Assembly (NCBI GenBank): GCA_051715425.1
Contig: JBPXJS010000011.1
Coordinates: 132,215 to 196,214, forward strand
Source: Bacteroidota bacterium
Lineage (GTDB): Bacteria > Bacteroidota > Bacteroidia > UKL13-3
Length of the DNA: 64,000 nucleotides
Direction: 5' to 3'
A program made the position numbers and the translations under genes. Below, in pieces: positions 3,016 to 32,142 of this stretch (within the stretch, counting starts at the first letter, position 1; every line of letters begins with the position of its first letter). Below the pieces are notes generated by a model. That model saw only the letters and a list, made by a program, of their open reading frames with translations, was not told where the DNA came from and ran no database searches.

Positions 3016-4383
3016 ATGAATAATTCAAATACATCTCTGCTCGACCGCATGAATAACTGGCTCCGGGAGTCGGTTATGGTCAAAGTAGTATCCATCGGGA
3101 TACTCGTTCTTATTTTACTTATTCCTAAAACATGGGTAAACTCCATTTTAGATGAAAGGGAGTGGCGTGCTTCAGAAGCTATCAATGAGGTTTCGCAAAA
3201 ATGGTCGGGCACACAGAACTTAACAGGTCCGGTGTTGGTAATACCTTATAAGAAAAAAGTGGTAAGGCAAATCACTACCGCTGATAAAAGGATTGTGGAG
3301 CGCATTGATACCACCATATCGGAAGCTTACTTTTTGCCGCATGAGCTAAATATAAAAGGAGAACTAAATCCACAGAACCTGCACCGGGGAATTTTTGATG
3401 TAGTGGTATACCATTCTTCTATCATGATGGATGGGTACTTTGAGAAACCCAATATAGAAGCCCTTGGTTTAAAAAATCAGGATATGTTATGGAGTGAGGC
3501 TTATCTGATTAACGGATTAAGTGATTTAAGGGGAATAGGAGAGAACCCTCAGATAAAATGGAACAACCAGGTTTATCATGCAGAACCTGTAAACAAAGAA
3601 GGCAATGAAGGGCTGTTCAACAAAAATATTGCAGTTAAGATAAAAATTAATCCGGAAGATAGTATGGTTCCATTCTCAACCTCCCTGTCGTTAAAAGGTA
3701 GCAGCCATTTGTATTTTTATCCCTTGGGGAAAACCACAAAGGTGAGCTTAAAAGGTACCTGGGGTAATCCAAGTTTTGATGGTTTTTATCTTCCCGAAAC
3801 AAGAAACGTAGATGCAGATCTTTTTTCTTCTACATGGAAAATACTCAGTTTTAACCGCCCTTTCCCGCAGCAATGGGCTGATCAGGTTTCAGGAGTGGAG
3901 GGTACGGCATTTGGGGTAAACCTCCTGATGCCGGTTGATCAATACCAAAAAAGTATCCGCACATCAAAGTATGGCATACTCATTATCGTACTCACTTTTG
4001 TATCTCTTTTATTAATGGAAATTATTGTAAAAATACGCATCCATCCTTTCCAATATACCCTCATTGGTGCTGCATTAATTATCTACTATACGCTGCTCCT
4101 TTCTTTCTCCGAACATATCGGATTTAACCTGGCTTATCTTATTTCCGCTGTGGCCGTGGTGGTATTAATCAGTTTATATTCTCTTACCTTTTTCAGGAAA
4201 ATAAAAGTTGCAGGCCTGCTCGCATTTTTACTTACCTTATTTTATGCATACATATTTGTGATTACCCAACAACAGGATTATGCCTTGCTGCTGGGTAGTA
4301 TTGGTTTGTTCCTCATTATTTCTGTTTTAATGTATGTATCAAGGAAAATAAACTGGTACGGACAATCACATCAACCCGAATAA
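3016..4383 (+). CDS. creD: cell envelope integrity inner-membrane protein CreD family
   Basis: 455 aa. N-terminal TM, periplasmic domain with the conserved LIPxxWVNSILDEREWRxxEAINEVSQKWSGxQNLTGPVLVIPY block, and a C-terminal cluster of TM helices typical of CreD. Confidence 0.75.
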   Translation: MNNSNTSLLDRMNNWLRESVMVKVVSIGILVLILLIPKTWVNSILDEREWRASEAINEVSQKWSGTQNLTGPVLVIPYKKKVVRQITTADKRIVERIDTTISEAYFLPHELNIKGELNPQNLHRGIFDVVVYHSSIMMDGYFEKPNIEALGLKNQDMLWSEAYLINGLSDLRGIGENPQIKWNNQVYHAEPVNKEGNEGLFNKNIAVKIKINPEDSMVPFSTSLSLKGSSHLYFYPLGKTTKVSLKGTWGNPSFDGFYLPETRNVDADLFSSTWKILSFNRPFPQQWADQVSGVEGTAFGVNLLMPVDQYQKSIRTSKYGILIIVLTFVSLLLMEIIVKIRIHPFQYTLIGAALIIYYTLLLSFSEHIGFNLAYLISAVAVVVLISLYSLTFFRKIKVAGLLAFLLTLFYAYIFVITQQQDYALLLGSIGLFLIISVLMYVSRKINWYGQSHQPE

Positions 4384-8973: not shown

Positions 8974-10365
8974 CTATATCTCCTTTTCCCACTTGGCTAT
9001 CACGTAGGTGGCCAGGCAATTACCAATCAGGTTCACCGAGGTACGACCCATATCCATAATGGCATCAATAGCCAGTATAGCAAATGCCTTTTGCGGATCC
9101 AAACCCAACGAAGCAACAGTACCTACCAGAATTAAAAACGAGGCACCCCGCACTCCGGCTACCCCTTTTGAAGTAAGCATCAGGATTAAACACATCTGAA
9201 TCTGCTCACCCAAACTTAAATCTACCCCGCATACCTGCGCCACAAACACCGATGCCAGCGAAAGGTAAAGCGTAGTGCCATCCAGGTTAAAACTATATCC
9301 TGTTGGCAATACAAAAGAAACCACCTTACGTGGGATACCCATTTTTTCCAGGTTCTCCATGGCTTTGGGCAAGGCCGCTTCTGAACTTGCCGTAGCAAAT
9401 GCTATAGATAAAGGTTCTGAGATATGTTGTATAAATGTTCGGAACGGTAGCTTTACCAGCAAACCTATAGGAACCAATACCAGCAATATAAAAGCAAACA
9501 AGGCAGCGTATAAAGTAACAACAAGCTTAAGCAGGTTTTGCAATACCCCGTAACCCATGGTGGCAATGGCATAACCAATGGCTCCCCCCACAGCAAGCGG
9601 TGCCATATACATCACCAGGTTGGTAAATTTAAACATCACCTGAGCCAGCCCTTCAATAGCATCCACCATTTTATCCTTTCTTTCGCCCTTTACCTGAGCC
9701 AGCCCTATGCCAAATAAAATACTAAACACCACAATCTGCAGAATCTGATTATCGGCCACTGATTTGGCAATATTTTCCGGAAAAATATCAAGTATCACGT
9801 TATGTGTATGTTTTTGCTCCAGCAACTGTGCGGCCTTCTCTACCTGCGCCTGCCCGGCCTGAAACTCAGCACCCACACCCGCCTGCGATAAGTTAATGGC
9901 CACCAATCCTATAACCAGAGCTACAGTGGTTACCAGCTCAAAATAAATAATGGATTTTAAACCCATACGCCCTACCTGTTTTAAATCGGAATGACCCGCA
10001 ATGCCCACCACCAAAGTAGAGAAGAGCAGGGGAGCAATAATGGTTTTAATCAGGCGCAGAAAAATATCACTGAAAACTTTTAACTCTTTGGCCGCAGCCG
10101 GAAACCACTCAGCCACCTCAATACCCAAAAACATGCACAATAAAATAGAAGCCGTAAGCGATTTTAACCTCCAGGTATAAACACCCATTAAGATGATAAA
10201 TGCCCAGCGAACCAGGTGCAGCAACACAGAAGGAAAAGTGGTTATTTCCATCCACTGCATCACATGCAGGGAAGAATCGAGAAAAAATACGCCTAAAACG
10301 GCAAACAACAGGTTACGGTTTTCTTTCATGCCGCTCAAACCTAAAACAAAGCAAGGTAAAAACAA
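8974..10365 (-). CDS. dicarboxylate/amino acid:cation (Na+/H+) symporter, DAACS family
   Basis: 463 aa with ~8–10 TM segments and GltP/DctA-like signature blocks (LPTGYSFNLDG, MLTSKGVAGV). Confidence 0.85.
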   Translation of the reverse strand: MFLPCFVLGLSGMKENRNLLFAVLGVFFLDSSLHVMQWMEITTFPSVLLHLVRWAFIILMGVYTWRLKSLTASILLCMFLGIEVAEWFPAAAKELKVFSDIFLRLIKTIIAPLLFSTLVVGIAGHSDLKQVGRMGLKSIIYFELVTTVALVIGLVAINLSQAGVGAEFQAGQAQVEKAAQLLEQKHTHNVILDIFPENIAKSVADNQILQIVVFSILFGIGLAQVKGERKDKMVDAIEGLAQVMFKFTNLVMYMAPLAVGGAIGYAIATMGYGVLQNLLKLVVTLYAALFAFILLVLVPIGLLVKLPFRTFIQHISEPLSIAFATASSEAALPKAMENLEKMGIPRKVVSFVLPTGYSFNLDGTTLYLSLASVFVAQVCGVDLSLGEQIQMCLILMLTSKGVAGVRGASFLILVGTVASLGLDPQKAFAILAIDAIMDMGRTSVNLIGNCLATYVIAKWEKEI

Positions 10366-10389
10366 AGAGAATGTGCAGATGTGCAGATG

Positions 10390-10760
10390 TTGAGAAGACT
10401 TGCGGGTTAGCCACGAATGACCACGAATTTATTTATTGAGAAGACTTCCGCGTATTGCCACACGCGTCAAGCCGCAGGCATGAGATTTCACAGATATACT
10501 TTTGAGAAGACTTCTGAGAGTAGTAGCTGCGCCTGTCAAGCTGCAGGCATGAAATTTCCACGAATTTTATTTTAAGACTTTTGCTCCCACTATGGCGGGT
10601 CTATAACCAATGTCTAATGTCCATTGACCAAACCAAGCCGCGCCTGTCAAGCCGCAGGCATGAAATTTCCACAAATTGTATTCACGAATTTTATTTAAGA
10701 TATTAACGCCCGCAATGGACAAGCGAGCCTTGACTCTCGAATTGCCGTACAGGGATGACA
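10390..10760. repeat. cluster of 'E' interspersed repeat units (left island boundary)
   Basis: 3–4 units of ttgagaagactt(c/g)cg...cgcctgtcaagccgcaggcatgaaattt(c)cacgaatt, each with an 8-bp-stem hairpin (catgcctg/caggcgtg). Reverse-complement copies at 31100–31560 and 63220–63372. Confidence 0.85.
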
Positions 10761-10785
10761 ACACTCTCATTCAACATTTCCTCAA

Positions 10786-11608
10786 CTTCGAACTTCCAAA
10801 CCAATAAAACTCCGGGAAACGCAATATCCTAACTTAACATTTAAAATTTAACATTTAAAACTCAGCATTCAACATTTCAATAACTTCGAACTATTGAACT
10901 TCGAATATCTTAAATAATATGATGTTTTCTTAATTAGAAAGCCCTGAGTCGTTTTGCTCACAGATTTCACAGATTTGCACAGACCCCTTAGCCAAACCCG
11001 GCAAACAGAAAAATAAAACTTCCTAACTTCGAACTACCCAACTTCGAACTTCTTAACTTAACGCAAAGGGCGCAACGGTTTCGCAAGGAACGCAAAGAAA
11101 TATCGGTTGTAAACCAGATTTTCCGCTATGCGCAACTTCCCAACTCAACATTTAAAATTTAACATTCAAAATTTCGAAATCTTCGAACTCCCAAACCAAT
11201 AAGATTCCGGGAAGCGCATCATCCCAACTTAACACTTAAAATTTAACATTTAAAATTCAGCATTCAACATTCAGCATTCAACATTTCAAAAACTTCGAAC
11301 TTCCAAACCAATAAGATTCCGGGAAGCGCAACACCCCAACTTAACATTTAAAATTCAACATTTAAAACTAAAAGATCCGCATTCAGCATTCAACATTTCA
11401 AAATCTTCGAACTTCCAAACCAATAAGATTCCGGGAAGCGCATCATCCCAACTTAACACTTAAAATTTAACATTTAAAATTCAGCATTCAACATTCAACA
11501 TTTCAAAAACTTCGAACTTCCAAACCAATAAGATTCCGGGAAGCGCAATATCCTAACTTAACACTTAAAATTTAACATTCAAAACTCAACATTCAGCATT
11601 CAACATTT
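10786..11608. repeat. 'F' tandem minisatellite (about 105–112-bp unit)
   Basis: Four near-perfect units beginning cttcgaacttccaaaccaataagattccgggaagcgca at 11181, 11293, 11405 and 11510. Degenerate copies from 10786. One inverted copy at 30978–31071. Confidence 0.9.
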
Positions 11609-12148
11609 TCATCCCATTTCATTTTCCAGTAACGAAAAAAGAATCGAATCTTCATAATTGCCAGCAGTATAAACGTGTTGTCTTAGTATGCCTTCTTTGG
11701 TAAAGTGGTTGTTTTGCAGGATGCTGATGGATGCGATATTATCAGTTGCGGTGATGGCTTCTATTCTGTGCAGTTTTAATTCGTTGAAACCGTAAGCGAT
11801 GATGGCTTTAACGGCTTCGGACATTAATCCTTTTCTTTTATAGGAATCTTCGTGCATGATATAGCCTATTTCTGCGCGGTGGTGGTCTTTGTTCCAGTTG
11901 TGCAGGCCGCAGCGACCAATAATGCGGCCGGATTCTTTATCTGTGAGCAGAAATAATAAAAAGCTGCGGTTATAGGCAGCATATCCGTTCAGGTGTTTGT
12001 ATTCTTCGTTGCGGTATTCTTCTTCGGAGCGGTGACCCAATACTTTTTTAATTTCTTCTTTGGGGAGGGTGGTAAAAATGGTATTGATATCAGCAGGCGA
12101 AAGTCCTGTGAGAAAGAGTCTGTTGGTTTCGAGGGTTACAAGGTTCAT
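11609..12148 (-). CDS. GNAT family N-acetyltransferase (RimJ/RimL-like)
   Basis: 179 aa with acetyl-CoA binding motifs (RGKGLMSEAVKAII, HRIEAITATDNIASISIL). Confidence 0.8.
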   Translation of the reverse strand: MNLVTLETNRLFLTGLSPADINTIFTTLPKEEIKKVLGHRSEEEYRNEEYKHLNGYAAYNRSFLLFLLTDKESGRIIGRCGLHNWNKDHHRAEIGYIMHEDSYKRKGLMSEAVKAIIAYGFNELKLHRIEAITATDNIASISILQNNHFTKEGILRQHVYTAGNYEDSILFSLLENEMG

Positions 12149-12197
12149 TGGGGGAAGGATGTTATGTTGAAATTGGTGTTTTTTTATTCAAATATGC

Positions 12198-13079
12198 TTA
12201 CTTTTTAAAATACTTGTAGTCATAACTAAAAGCTTGTTCAAAAACAGGTTCACCGGAAGTGTTGATGAGAAAATGCTTTTCTGATAGGATATTACCAAAA
12301 TGATCAAATTCGCAAAAGATACGTTCAGCATGTATGTAATGATTGTTATTTTTATTCCTAAATGCATACCGGTTTACAGTAACTGATTTGTAATCTCTGC
12401 TATAATGATACGTTGTAACCCACTTAACAGGTATACTGCCAACTGTTCTTGTTATCCAGCGATTTATTATTCCCCTTTCTGTTTTAGTATGTTTCACAAG
12501 ATAACCCAAACTATCAAAGATATATTGCTCTTGTGAGTAGCGTGTTTTAATCGTTTTCTTAGGTTCATGGGAAGTTGTTTTTTTTGCGATATCAGGTTGT
12601 TTGCTGCAATCTAAAAAAATTGTATCAGGGTTTATTGCGGCATATGAAAACCAACCGATCTCCGGGTTTATTTTTTTAATAAATCCGTCCGGACTATAAT
12701 AGATTTCGCGCCATAAAAATGAGTCGTTAGCCATTTTCGAGTGGTATATGAATAGTTCTTTTATGCCTTGTTTTCGAATGCGGCATATATTAAAAGTGTC
12801 TATAATAACTGAATGCGGAGGCTTCATGTTTTTATTATTCCGGTCAATAACCAACGTATAAATTTCATACCGGCAGTTGAAAATAGGATTGGTTTTGTCT
12901 GTTTCTATGATGGCGTGTTGGCTCTTTAATTGCTTTGGAAGGAGAAATAGAACCAAAGATAAAATCAATACAGTGTGCGCTCTTGCAATCACATAATATA
13001 TCTGAGATTTGGTAGGTAAACTCTTCAATTTGATCAAATCATACATAAACGTTATTTCGCTAATCAGTTTTTTTAACAC
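12198..13079 (-). CDS. hypothetical protein with YD/MORN-variant (YwqK-like) repeats
   Basis: 293 aa. N-terminal hydrophobic segment, then repeated YxxDxxGxL-type motifs. Resembles the neighbouring 14075–15259 protein. Confidence 0.45.
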   Translation of the reverse strand: MLKKLISEITFMYDLIKLKSLPTKSQIYYVIARAHTVLILSLVLFLLPKQLKSQHAIIETDKTNPIFNCRYEIYTLVIDRNNKNMKPPHSVIIDTFNICRIRKQGIKELFIYHSKMANDSFLWREIYYSPDGFIKKINPEIGWFSYAAINPDTIFLDCSKQPDIAKKTTSHEPKKTIKTRYSQEQYIFDSLGYLVKHTKTERGIINRWITRTVGSIPVKWVTTYHYSRDYKSVTVNRYAFRNKNNNHYIHAERIFCEFDHFGNILSEKHFLINTSGEPVFEQAFSYDYKYFKK

Positions 13080-30895: not shown

Positions 30896-30977
30896 CGATG
30901 AATAGACATTCTTAAATGGTATAATTTATTACCACCCCATAACTGGTTTTTAGTGCTCAGTGCTTGGTGCACGGTGG

Positions 30978-31071
30978 GAATGGAATGTTGAATGCTGAAT
31001 TTTGAATGTTAAATTTTAAATGTTAAGTTAGGATATTGCGCTTCCCGGAATTTTATTGGTTTGGAAGTTTA
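30978..31071. repeat. single inverted 'F' unit (right island boundary)
   Basis: Reverse complement of the 11181–11608 unit (…gaatgttgaatgctgaattttgaatgttaaattttaaatgttaagttaggatattgcgcttcccggaattttattggtttggaagtt). Confidence 0.85.
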
Positions 31072-31099
31072 TTTTCATAGTTCTACTTCATTCTACCTG

Positions 31100-31560
31100 C
31101 GCCTCAACCTTTGCGTCTTATGCGTCTCTGCGAGAGTCATTGCCTGTTCCGCAACGCAAGAGTCAAGGCTCGCTTGTCCATTGCAGGCGTTAATATCTTA
31201 AACAAAATTCGTGAATACAATTTGTGGAAATTTCATGCCTTCGGCTTGACAGGCGCGGCTTGGTTTGGTCATTGGTCATTGCCTGTCTCGCTATTGCGGG
31301 AGTCATTAGTCAATGCCTGCTTTGCTATTGCTGGAATCATTTTAAAATAAATCTGTGGCTAACCCGCGCAAGTCTTCTCAAAAAATCATCTGTGGAATCT
31401 CATGCCTTCGGCTTGACGCGTGTGGCTTGATTTGGTCATTTGTCAATGGGCATTGGTCATTGGACAATGGTTAATGATTAGTTTTTCTCGCAAGTCTTCT
31501 CAATAAATAAATTCGTGTTCATTTCATGCCTGCGGCTTGACAGGCGTGGCTTATTAGTGG
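31100..31560. repeat. cluster of inverted 'E' repeat units (right island boundary)
   Basis: Three units of gcaagtcttctcaa...aattcgtg...atttcatgcct(g/t)cggcttgacaggcg(t/c)ggc. 31140–31270 is a near-exact reverse complement of 10620–10750. Confidence 0.85.
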
Positions 31561-31596
31561 GTATTACCTAAGCACTGTGCACCACGCACTAAGCAC

Positions 31597-32142
31597 TCAT
31601 TTAACAGTAGTGGAGTCTTTCTTTTTGAAGTCGAGGGAGAGGGAGTTTACGCAGTAGCGGAGTCCGGTTTTATCTTGTGGGCCATCGTTGAATACGTGTC
31701 CGAGGTGGCCTCCGCATTTGGTGCATGTAATTTCTATGCGGGTCATGCCGTGGCTGTTGTCCATTTTTTCGGTGATTTTGGTTTTATCCAGGGCTTCATA
31801 AAAACTGGGCCATCCACATCCTGCATCAAACTTGGTGGCCGATTGAAACAACTCATTACCACAGCCTGCACAGGTATAAACACCCGGTTCCCAGTGGTCT
31901 TCAAACTTACCGGTAAAGGGACGTTCTGTTCCTTTCTCGCGTAATACGGCATATTGTTCTGGTGTGAGTTGTTTTTTCCAGTCGTCTTCGCTTTTTACTA
32001 TTTCAAATTCAGCCATGGTATCAGTTTTTAATGAGTTTGGTGTTTTTGCTGTTTCCGCTGGCTGATTTGATTTGCAGCCAGTATAAGCCAGGGTGCAGAT
32101 GCCCAAGGCCAGTAATAATAATTTCGTTTTTAGTTGTTTCAT
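31597..32142 (-). CDS. msrB: peptide-methionine (R)-S-oxide reductase MsrB
   Basis: Two CxxC zinc motifs, the catalytic Cys and the GTERPF/HLGHVF signatures. The ORF-track start encodes a lipoprotein-like signal peptide but overlaps the upstream gene by 122 bp. The alternative ATG at 32016 (MAEFEIV...) would give a cytoplasmic form. Confidence 0.85.
   Translation of the reverse strand: MKQLKTKLLLLALGICTLAYTGCKSNQPAETAKTPNSLKTDTMAEFEIVKSEDDWKKQLTPEQYAVLREKGTERPFTGKFEDHWEPGVYTCAGCGNELFQSATKFDAGCGWPSFYEALDKTKITEKMDNSHGMTRIEITCTKCGGHLGHVFNDGPQDKTGLRYCVNSLSLDFKKKDSTTVK

Follow-up and report, generated by a model that had tools for sequence, protein, structure and literature searches.

A composite heptamer array at the border of an inserted segment in an uncultured Bacteroidia bacterium and its probable relation to the arms of S23p elements

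Introduction

Does a tandem repeat that stands at the border of a genomic island belong to the workings of that island, or is it found there for more ordinary reasons? The question is raised by a 64,000-nt stretch of DNA, here called the window (G000:C11:132215-196214), from the genome of an uncultured Bacteroidia bacterium (4.27 Mb in 54 contigs), to which, among named organisms, freshwater MAGs and 'Bacteroidetes bacterium UKL13-3' stand closest. An initial annotation of this window had described a minisatellite-like array of a repeat unit, F, at one border of an island, a single inverted copy at the other, and a possible role as a recombination hotspot, a site of copy-number variation or a protein-binding array. 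In what follows, labels beginning with C denote contigs of the studied genome (G000), and G001 and similar labels denote relatives; unprefixed coordinates are those of the window.

The F tandem array

The array occupies nt 11142–11607 (plus strand), as delimited by Tandem Repeats Finder (TRF; period 112, 4.2 copies, 86% matches, score 687), a unit alignment and an identity matrix. The highest TRF score in 30 composition-preserving shuffles of the window was 59, so with at least two head-to-tail units beyond chance the sequence is a tandem repeat of the minisatellite type, and the array claimed at this border is real. Units start at nt 11181, 11293, 11405 and 11510, giving a spacing of 112, 112 and 105 nt, i.e. 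16, 16 and 15 times 7. Identity among units 2–4 is 82–94% (units 2 and 4 are 94% identical and one 7-nt word apart), and to call the units near-identical is slightly generous, as the last unit is truncated at the stop codon of a GNAT acetyltransferase gene (nt 11609–12148, minus strand; Pfam Acetyltransf_3, E 1e-26), which overlaps the last word of the array. The presence of this adjoining gene was also correctly described, as were the internal AT-rich sub-repeats (TRF finds 7- and 14-nt repeats of AACATTY and TTAAAAT inside the array), the non-coding nature of the array, which contains no ORF, and the distinction from CRISPR: the F units abut one another, and unique spacers of similar length between the repeats are absent.

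Read from its core, each unit consists of the core itself, 12–13 variable bases, a tract of AACATTY and TTAAAAT words, and AACTTCG words. The core, ATTCCGGGA, is almost invariant across 21 copies, and the 12 nt that follow it vary. Length differences of 7 nt and of whole units, seen between units and between loci, suggest that the copy number of the array has changed over time. A general rule that unit lengths are multiples of 7 was considered and rejected; it holds in the window array, and units at other loci measure 104, 106, 119, 120 and 127 nt.

The array is preceded by a mosaic of several modules. At its outer edge (nt 10371–10390, plus strand) are ATGTGCAG octamer words (TRF period 8, 2.5 copies), which also make up the arms of an S23p gene at C9:331170 (see below). 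The outer left border (nt 10390–10760, plus strand) follows, with modules TTGAGAAGACTT and GCCTGTCAAGCCGCAGGCATGAAATTTCC, the 'E' family of the initial annotation, belonging to the direct repeat families D2, D3, D5 and D6. After this come an isolated F unit, F1 (nt 10786–10880, plus strand), in which the F core is present, and a run of AACTTCG words (nt 10881–10913, plus strand; TRF periods 7 and 15, repeat family D4), with a second run at nt 11017–11059; AACTTCG is also a word of S23p arms in relatives G001 and G013. Between the two runs lies module X (nt 10914–11016, plus strand), a conserved, non-heptamer sequence with a coverage of about four copies, which precedes the F array at at least four loci. 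The second run is separated from the array by a GC-richer module and then a partial F unit (nt 11121–11173). Decayed F units had been thought to reach back to nt 10786, a description that has to be replaced: the interval 10786–11141 is made of mixed modules, with one full and one partial F unit among them.

Two further observations concern these sequences. Module X (about 100–130 nt, containing TTAATTAGAAAGCYCTGAGTCGTTTTGCTCACA) always stands just before an F array, both in the window and at C44:97k, 137k and 156k, and at C44 its copies are interrupted by a hairpin module of the 'E' type (CCTGTCAAGCCGAAGGCATGAGATTT). Elsewhere in the window, at nt 3501–3526, there are 3.2 copies of TTAACTGA inside an ORF (nt 3016–4383), which may be due to chance; this sequence is close to TAACTGA, a heptamer treated in work on Beggiatoaceae, cyanobacteria and Bacteroidetes (PMC4679880).

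The inserted segment and its two borders

The gene order EndoI, msrB, SDF transporter is kept in about 20 related species, in which SDF orthologues (79–90% identity) are found directly after msrB. The gap between msrB and SDF is 14–30 bp in nine of these species, and up to 1.2 kb, filled with other material, in others; in the studied genome the distance is 21.2 kb. Since the two genes are adjacent in relatives, the segment nt 10368–31596 is an insertion. Its conserved left flank is the gene for the SDF protein, a sodium:dicarboxylate symporter (nt 8974–10365, minus strand; Pfam PF00375, E 1e-107), and its conserved right flank is msrB (SelR; nt 31597–32142, minus strand; Pfam PF01641, E 4e-54), the stop codon of which abuts a second mosaic. 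The inserted segment comprises both border mosaics, the F array and a low-GC block of minus-strand genes, and has a G+C content of 32–38%, compared with 40–45% outside.

The right border mosaic (nt 30945–31597, plus strand; inverted pairs I1–I19) is a gene-less panhandle with arms of AGTGCTY and RAGCACT words, and its predicted fold pairs both ends (z −2.15; none of 20 shuffles folds as well). Within it, the single inverted F unit, earlier placed at nt 30978–31071, was found at nt 30981–31069; it is 94% complementary to nt 10791–10879, in the isolated unit F1, and 84–94% complementary to the units of the array. The symmetry of the borders is more extensive than this one unit, as the borders are imperfect inverted repeats of each other, collinear over about 500 bp (nt 10416–10879 versus 30981–31523), with segments that are 88–94% complementary and with exact inverted matches of 37, 36, 31 and 30 nt common to both. 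The outer left border in particular (nt 10390–10760) has collinear inverted partners at nt 31143–31552 (pairs I1, I7, I11, I13 and I17; 88–94% complementary), including exact inverted matches of 37, 30 and 26 nt.

The msrB–SDF gap is a hot spot in relatives as well. Unrelated inserts of 0.45–1.2 kb are found there in some species (L040:1740-2965, L053:1050-2180, L044:2535-3005 and L042:2725-2965), and in UKL13-3 (CP012155) the gap holds a short run of TATTGGC heptamers.

A genome-wide family of mosaics

With one F unit as query, 45 matches were found in the genome, and F cores (AAYNAWTAARATTCCGGGA) number 21, at eight loci. A search with a mosaic library revealed about 60 related mosaic regions, 14.9 kb in total, with 92% of their bases outside ORFs of at least 100 aa. 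Other tandem F arrays, of 3–4 units with 74–88% identity, are located at C41:204k, C44:137k, C44:156k and C44:162k, and single F units at C44:97k and C8:582k. The genes that flank these other loci include purD and those for a 2-oxoacid dehydrogenase E2 (acyltransferase), an FAA hydrolase, a peptidase M3, a histidine kinase and an ABC transporter. Because F arrays stand beside ordinary genes such as these, F does not mark islands as such. The statement that F lies at the borders of the island is accurate in that a copy is present at each border of the low-GC segment, and incomplete in that F is also present at six loci without islands; an island-specific role is largely undone by the arrays that the genome-wide search found next to ordinary genes. 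The proposal of a recombination hotspot fares a little better. Several F loci adjoin genes that congeners lack, or synteny breaks, and the association is a weak one: at 4.27 Mb the genome is nearly twice the size of its 2.3–2.5-Mb congeners, and with about 44% of it having no counterpart in them, an excess of genome-specific genes next to mosaics says little.

The mosaics have a recurrent plan, in which a word 'head', module X, one to four F units and a word 'tail' follow one another in this order at at least four loci. A fixed orientation relative to neighbouring genes or to the island was looked for and discarded, as heads point inward at C44:156k and 162k and tails point inward in the window. 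Mosaics favour the 3' ends of genes: 21 of 59 lie in convergent gaps, which make up 12% of background gaps (a three-fold enrichment), and only 5 of 59 in divergent gaps, which make up 20%. Genome-wide, periods of 7, 14 and 21 dominate among TRF results with scores of at least 50, and there are 27 strict heptamer tracts. AACATTC, AACTTCG, AAGCACT and AATGACY predominate among the words, and AATGACY is complementary to TTGGTCA. The family thus has the traits of STRR-like heptamer mosaics, namely several tandem 7-nt words in positions that are intergenic, dispersed and variable between relatives, where the orthologous gaps are 14–30 bp or hold other sequence.

Beyond this genome, only the words are shared. 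When the complete left mosaic was compared by BLAST with 118 other family genomes, heptamer tracts alone matched; the non-heptamer parts, including the F core and module X, were found in none of the 118. The exact F-core pattern gave no match in 185,579 species genomes or in two scans of the JGI metagenomes, records very close to this genome perhaps being missing from the scanned set. Plain AACATTY arrays are present in several genera of the family, and AACATTY words are the only ones common across genera. Judged from the genomes searched, the mosaic repeat family is species-specific.

Some individual loci deserve mention. At C44:152000-167000 (L025), genes for a TPR histidine kinase, an AAA ATPase and a beta-eliminating lyase, all absent from four relatives, are inserted in a conserved backbone consisting of a 560-aa gene and the genes for an FAA hydrolase and a peptidase M3; two of the three inserted genes have an F-bearing mosaic at the 3' end. 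The 2.1-kb mosaic at C8:3280-5398 (L029) has higher-order arrays of 118 bp (4.1 copies) and 95 bp (2.2 copies), composed of ATGTGCAG and AACTTCG words together with a ACCGCAAAGACGCTAAGGCGCAAGG module that resembles nt 11060–11100 of the window. Tandem arrays of 95–101 bp (5–6 copies, 90–95% identity) are found at the contig ends C46:1-1163 and C42:128601-129170; these are unrelated to F and probably cause the assembly breaks. A 126-bp array of 3.6 copies at C44:32569-33008 has a unit that looks like a tRNA gene with a terminator, and probably represents tandem tRNA genes.

S23p genes and their arms

S23p (PF05635) is a family of four-helix-bundle proteins first known from intervening sequences (IVS) of 23S rRNA. 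The genome contains four PF05635 genes, all of them bracketed by inverted arms of tandem words, and one of the four also matches TIGR02436 and PDB 2GSC and, weakly, DGR Avd. The gene at C42:118418-118783 (L135:1468-1833; listed as C42:118451) has arms of AGTGCTT / AAGCACT, that at C41:77517-77870 (L139:318-671; listed as C41:77553) has arms of GAATGTT and AAGTGTT / AACATTT and AACACTT, that at C9:331170-331460 has arms of ATGTGAAG / ATGTGCAG (ATGTGMAG words), and that at C8:314555-314866 has arms of AGAGAA. Their arm scores range from 10 to 21, the 95th percentile of 300 control ORFs of similar size being 9.5. The association of S23p with such arms extends to the family, where 19 of 40 sampled S23p genes have an arm score of at least 12, as against 0.7% of the 300 control ORFs. 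Arm words in relatives are AACTTCG (G001, G013), GAATGTT-type words (G004, G011, G019), TTAGTCA/TTGGTCA (G014) and AGTGCWY (G016).

The four genes occupy different gaps, all of which look operon-like. The C41 gene lies between the gene for a PFOR-type alpha subunit and the next gene, the C42 gene between 3-hydroxyanthranilate dioxygenase-like and ACMSD-like genes, the C9 gene between murE-like and mraY-like genes, and the C8 gene next to one for a tRNA; of these neighbours, PFOR-alpha was verified with Pfam, and the others were named from short translated flanks. Some of these sites hold S23p in other genera too (the PFOR site in G004, G011 and G019, the C42 site in G016), with the arm word type kept.

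Three of the four arm word types also occur in the mosaics of the window. For one of them the similarity is closer: reverse-complemented F units align with the 5' arm of the C41:77553 element at 92–93% identity over 46–53 nt, a score that was matched by 0–1 of 1000 shuffles of the word order of the arm. As word-order shuffles almost never match, the homology between F and the C41 arm resides in an ordered series of word variants and goes beyond a common vocabulary. The alignments indicate that this homology is limited to the AACATTY tract, the AT-rich half of the unit. A similar relation between the AACTTCG part of F and the AACTTCG-type S23p arms was considered and set aside; the best match, 22 nt at 91%, is no better than shuffles, and only the word is shared.

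A decayed element is preserved in the gap between sufB and sufC (C45:9975-10222), a 250-bp gene-less mosaic that consists of a 5' arm, the last 30 or so S23p codons (genome-wide tblastn, E 0.004–0.008) and a tandemly duplicated AACTTCG 3' arm. In G001, G011, G013 and G028 an intact S23p gene lies between sufB and sufC, with different arm words. Since a decayed S23p gene is found between arms at this site, gene-less arms do arise from elements. When every mosaic region was searched by tblastn with the four S23p proteins of the genome, no S23p remnants turned up apart from the flanks of the S23p genes themselves, and none was found in the F-bearing mosaics. With neither an ORF nor an S23p remnant, the array is not itself an S23p element and is at most a derivative of one. 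The intact C41 element folds as a panhandle closed by its arms, as the right border mosaic does; the units of the F array all run in one direction and do not fold, their complementary copy being 19.4 kb away. A telomerase-like origin of the words is unlikely, because the 99.8%-complete genome contains no reverse transcriptase gene (PF00078), and this idea was dropped.

Probable origin of the array

On balance, we regard the F array as non-coding repeat DNA, selfish or neutral in nature, a mosaic derived from the arms of S23p hairpins, which has been amplified locally and probably has no dedicated job in the cell. Since it is one of about 60 places in the genome that hold mosaics, and since a tract of its unit matches the inverted arms of S23p elements, the array most likely represents debris of repeats, in a gap prone to rearrangement, rather than a signal peculiar to the island border. 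It may have formed by a four- to five-fold local amplification of a composite unit from the species-specific intergenic family described above, a unit that would have reached only a few loci of this species. The mosaics themselves would be shed, gene-less or duplicated arms of S23p hairpin elements, fused with short junction sequences. Replication slippage and unequal exchange would lengthen or shorten them, by 7 nt or by a whole unit at a time. They could be copied between loci by recombination or by the mobility of S23p elements, and would persist mainly at the 3' ends of genes because they do little harm there. The array and the inverted copy opposite it both fall within the inverted repeat (about 500 bp) formed by the borders, and their chief effect would be to provide inverted homology, by which the 20-kb segment could be inverted or otherwise rearranged. 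We infer that descent ran from arms to mosaics; the order could also have been the reverse, with word arrays coming first and S23p genes inserting into them.

A far-reaching extension of the same scheme, which we put forward only tentatively and regard as doubtful, is that Bacteroidota heptamer mosaics in general, and by extension the cyanobacterial STRR, are shed and amplified arms of S23p elements, taken as small, selfish hairpin cassettes. In that case their Avd-like PF05635 protein would recognise or propagate the 7-nt arms, the F array would be a fossil of several fused and amplified elements, and the island would sit in the opened loop of a large nested hairpin.

Alternative explanations

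Word arrays might instead arise independently by slippage, as simple-sequence DNA of the STRR type, and S23p genes might insert into palindromic arrays or survive in them, so that F would owe nothing to S23p. Such an origin appears unlikely given the ordered series of word variants that the F tract has in common with the C41 arm, beyond the words as such, the decayed S23p gene at sufB–sufC, which shows that gene-less arms derive from elements, and the constancy of word type across genera in the S23p arms of one operon site. There are nevertheless three observations in its favour: heptamer arrays without an S23p gene are common in this genome and in relatives, the genome has 60 mosaic regions and four S23p genes, and across relatives the number of AACATT matches does not follow that of S23p genes (G014 and G010, with 10 and 7 S23p genes, have no match).

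An almost invariant core next to variable bases could mean selection on a putative binding site, and the array has also to be considered as a possible set of sites for a nucleoid-associated, partition or regulatory protein, the site being either the core, AAYNAWTAARATTCCGGGA, or the 7-nt words in phase. Regular spacing of the words agrees with such a use, and in Nostoc there is a precedent in contiguous heptamer repeats that affect regulator binding and the expression of recF/recO (preprint 10.1101/2022.06.06.494920). The non-heptamer part, core included, is found in none of the 118 family genomes, however, so a conserved partner is not implied; the copies lie at gene 3' ends and are rarer in the divergent gaps that bear promoters, promoter-like sites in our scan were no more frequent than by chance, and the F loci have no link to a candidate binding protein. 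Such a function is, in our judgement, improbable.

It is very improbable that a mobile island of 20 kb ends in the F-bearing borders, with these as the terminal inverted repeats or attachment sites on which a recombinase or transposase acts. Three features of the segment agree with this possibility, namely the collinear inverted repeat at its borders, its insertion as a whole between genes that are adjacent in relatives, and its lower G+C content. Of what characterises a transposon or island with terminal inverted repeats, however (inverted ends, a recombinase and a target duplication), it has the inverted ends only: no integrase or transposase domain was found in ORFs of at least 120 aa between the borders, and the junctions showed no direct duplication of the target. 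In addition, F units or arrays occur at six other loci without islands, and the right border is a self-contained panhandle.

The least probable of the alternatives is that the array acts in RNA, as a stabilising, terminating or insulating element in the 3' UTR of the GNAT gene after the manner of enterobacterial REP/BIME. In its favour are the position of the array, which begins at the stop codon of GNAT, the three-fold enrichment of mosaics in convergent gaps, and the folding of two-armed mosaics and S23p elements as panhandles that might be cut by RNase III (PMC4990558). Against it, neither strand of the array units folds stably (z +0.3 to −0.4; single mosaic units, both strands, z +0.3 to −1.6), the units are co-directional and so cannot pair with each other, and they are accompanied neither by an intrinsic terminator in the promoter and terminator scan nor by an Rfam match (a search of nt 9800–12300 at E up to 1 gave one chance-level match, outside the array).

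Descent from S23p hairpin elements, the origin that we prefer, is directly testable in this genome, where three stages can be seen together: S23p genes that are intact and have word arms, one that has decayed to a remnant between arms at an orthologous site, and gene-less, amplified mosaics in which the ordered series of words recurs. Two practical points follow from the data. Arrays of this kind should not be taken for att sites, CRISPR-like arrays or regulatory sites in annotation, and the exact inverted matches of 30–37 nt between the borders could invert the 20-kb block, which contains defence-type genes. Taken alone, the array is ordinary repeat DNA, and its value is that of a clean example of the wider heptamer puzzle.

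Comparison with known systems

Tandem heptamer arrays were recognised decades ago, in cyanobacteria, Beggiatoaceae and Bacteroidota. The cyanobacterial STRR heptamers were reportedly described by Mazel et al. in 1990, and TTGGTCA, a word in the studied genome, is an STRR word. Mixed, intergenic heptamer assemblages are on record from Bacteroidetes and cyanobacteria (MacGregor 2015, PMC4679880), and occur in the Flavobacteriia Gramella, Aequorivita and Elizabethkingia, with the same gaps in close relatives being without them (PMC4679880); a role in rearrangement was suggested (MacGregor 2015, PMC4679880), and the origin and function of the repeats were left open (PMC4679880). The literature that was searched gave no origin or function for tandem heptamer arrays. 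The mosaics described here resemble the heptamer assemblages and STRR in that several 7-nt words are mixed in one gap, in that close relatives have short gaps without repeats, and in their tie to rearrangement. They differ in that the words of the window form a higher-order unit of 105–112 nt, both tandem and dispersed, with a non-heptamer core, and in that one word tract is traceable to the arm of a resident S23p element.

Intervening sequences in 23S rRNA with an S23p ORF are represented by those of Coxiella burnetii (PMC4990558), Leptospira and Xanthomonas (XCC0516, PDB 2GSC). The Coxiella IVS has GACAGAT heptamers by the ORF, in numbers that vary between strains, and excision of its stem by RNase III was shown (PMC4990558); in the literature searched, this work alone connects S23p with heptamers. 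Like an IVS, the PF05635/TIGR02436 genes of this genome lie in the loop of a stem made by terminal inverted repeats. Unlike the IVS, the S23p elements are located between protein-coding genes and not in rRNA, and the F array has no ORF and has units that all run in one direction.

The REP units of enterobacteria are palindromes that form hairpins. The F units have in common with REP/BIME that they are short, non-coding modules arranged in mosaics, dozens to hundreds in number, at gene 3' ends and specific to a species, and are unlike them in being made of 7-nt tandem words and in giving no fold signal, the palindromic, stable hairpin that defines REP/BIME being absent. Some likeness also exists to integron attC and CALIN arrays, as the F array adjoins a co-oriented series of unrelated accessory genes with repeats between them; no F units were found between the genes of the island, however, there is no hairpin-folding palindrome of the attC kind, and F is present at loci without cassettes.

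In eukaryotes, minisatellites, higher-order repeats and foldback-type elements contain short sub-repeats in long units or in inverted ends. The F array likewise has a long unit of short sub-repeats that is amplified head to tail, with copy numbers that differ between loci, and the borders of the segment are long inverted terminal regions of short tandem repeats, as in foldback-type elements. The differences are the bacterial genome and the four to five copies per array, and we know of no transposase for the F repeats.

Heptamer mosaic repeats as a kind were already known. What the present locus adds is sequence-level homology between a unit of such a mosaic and the arm of an intact S23p element, together with a decayed element of this type at an orthologous site.
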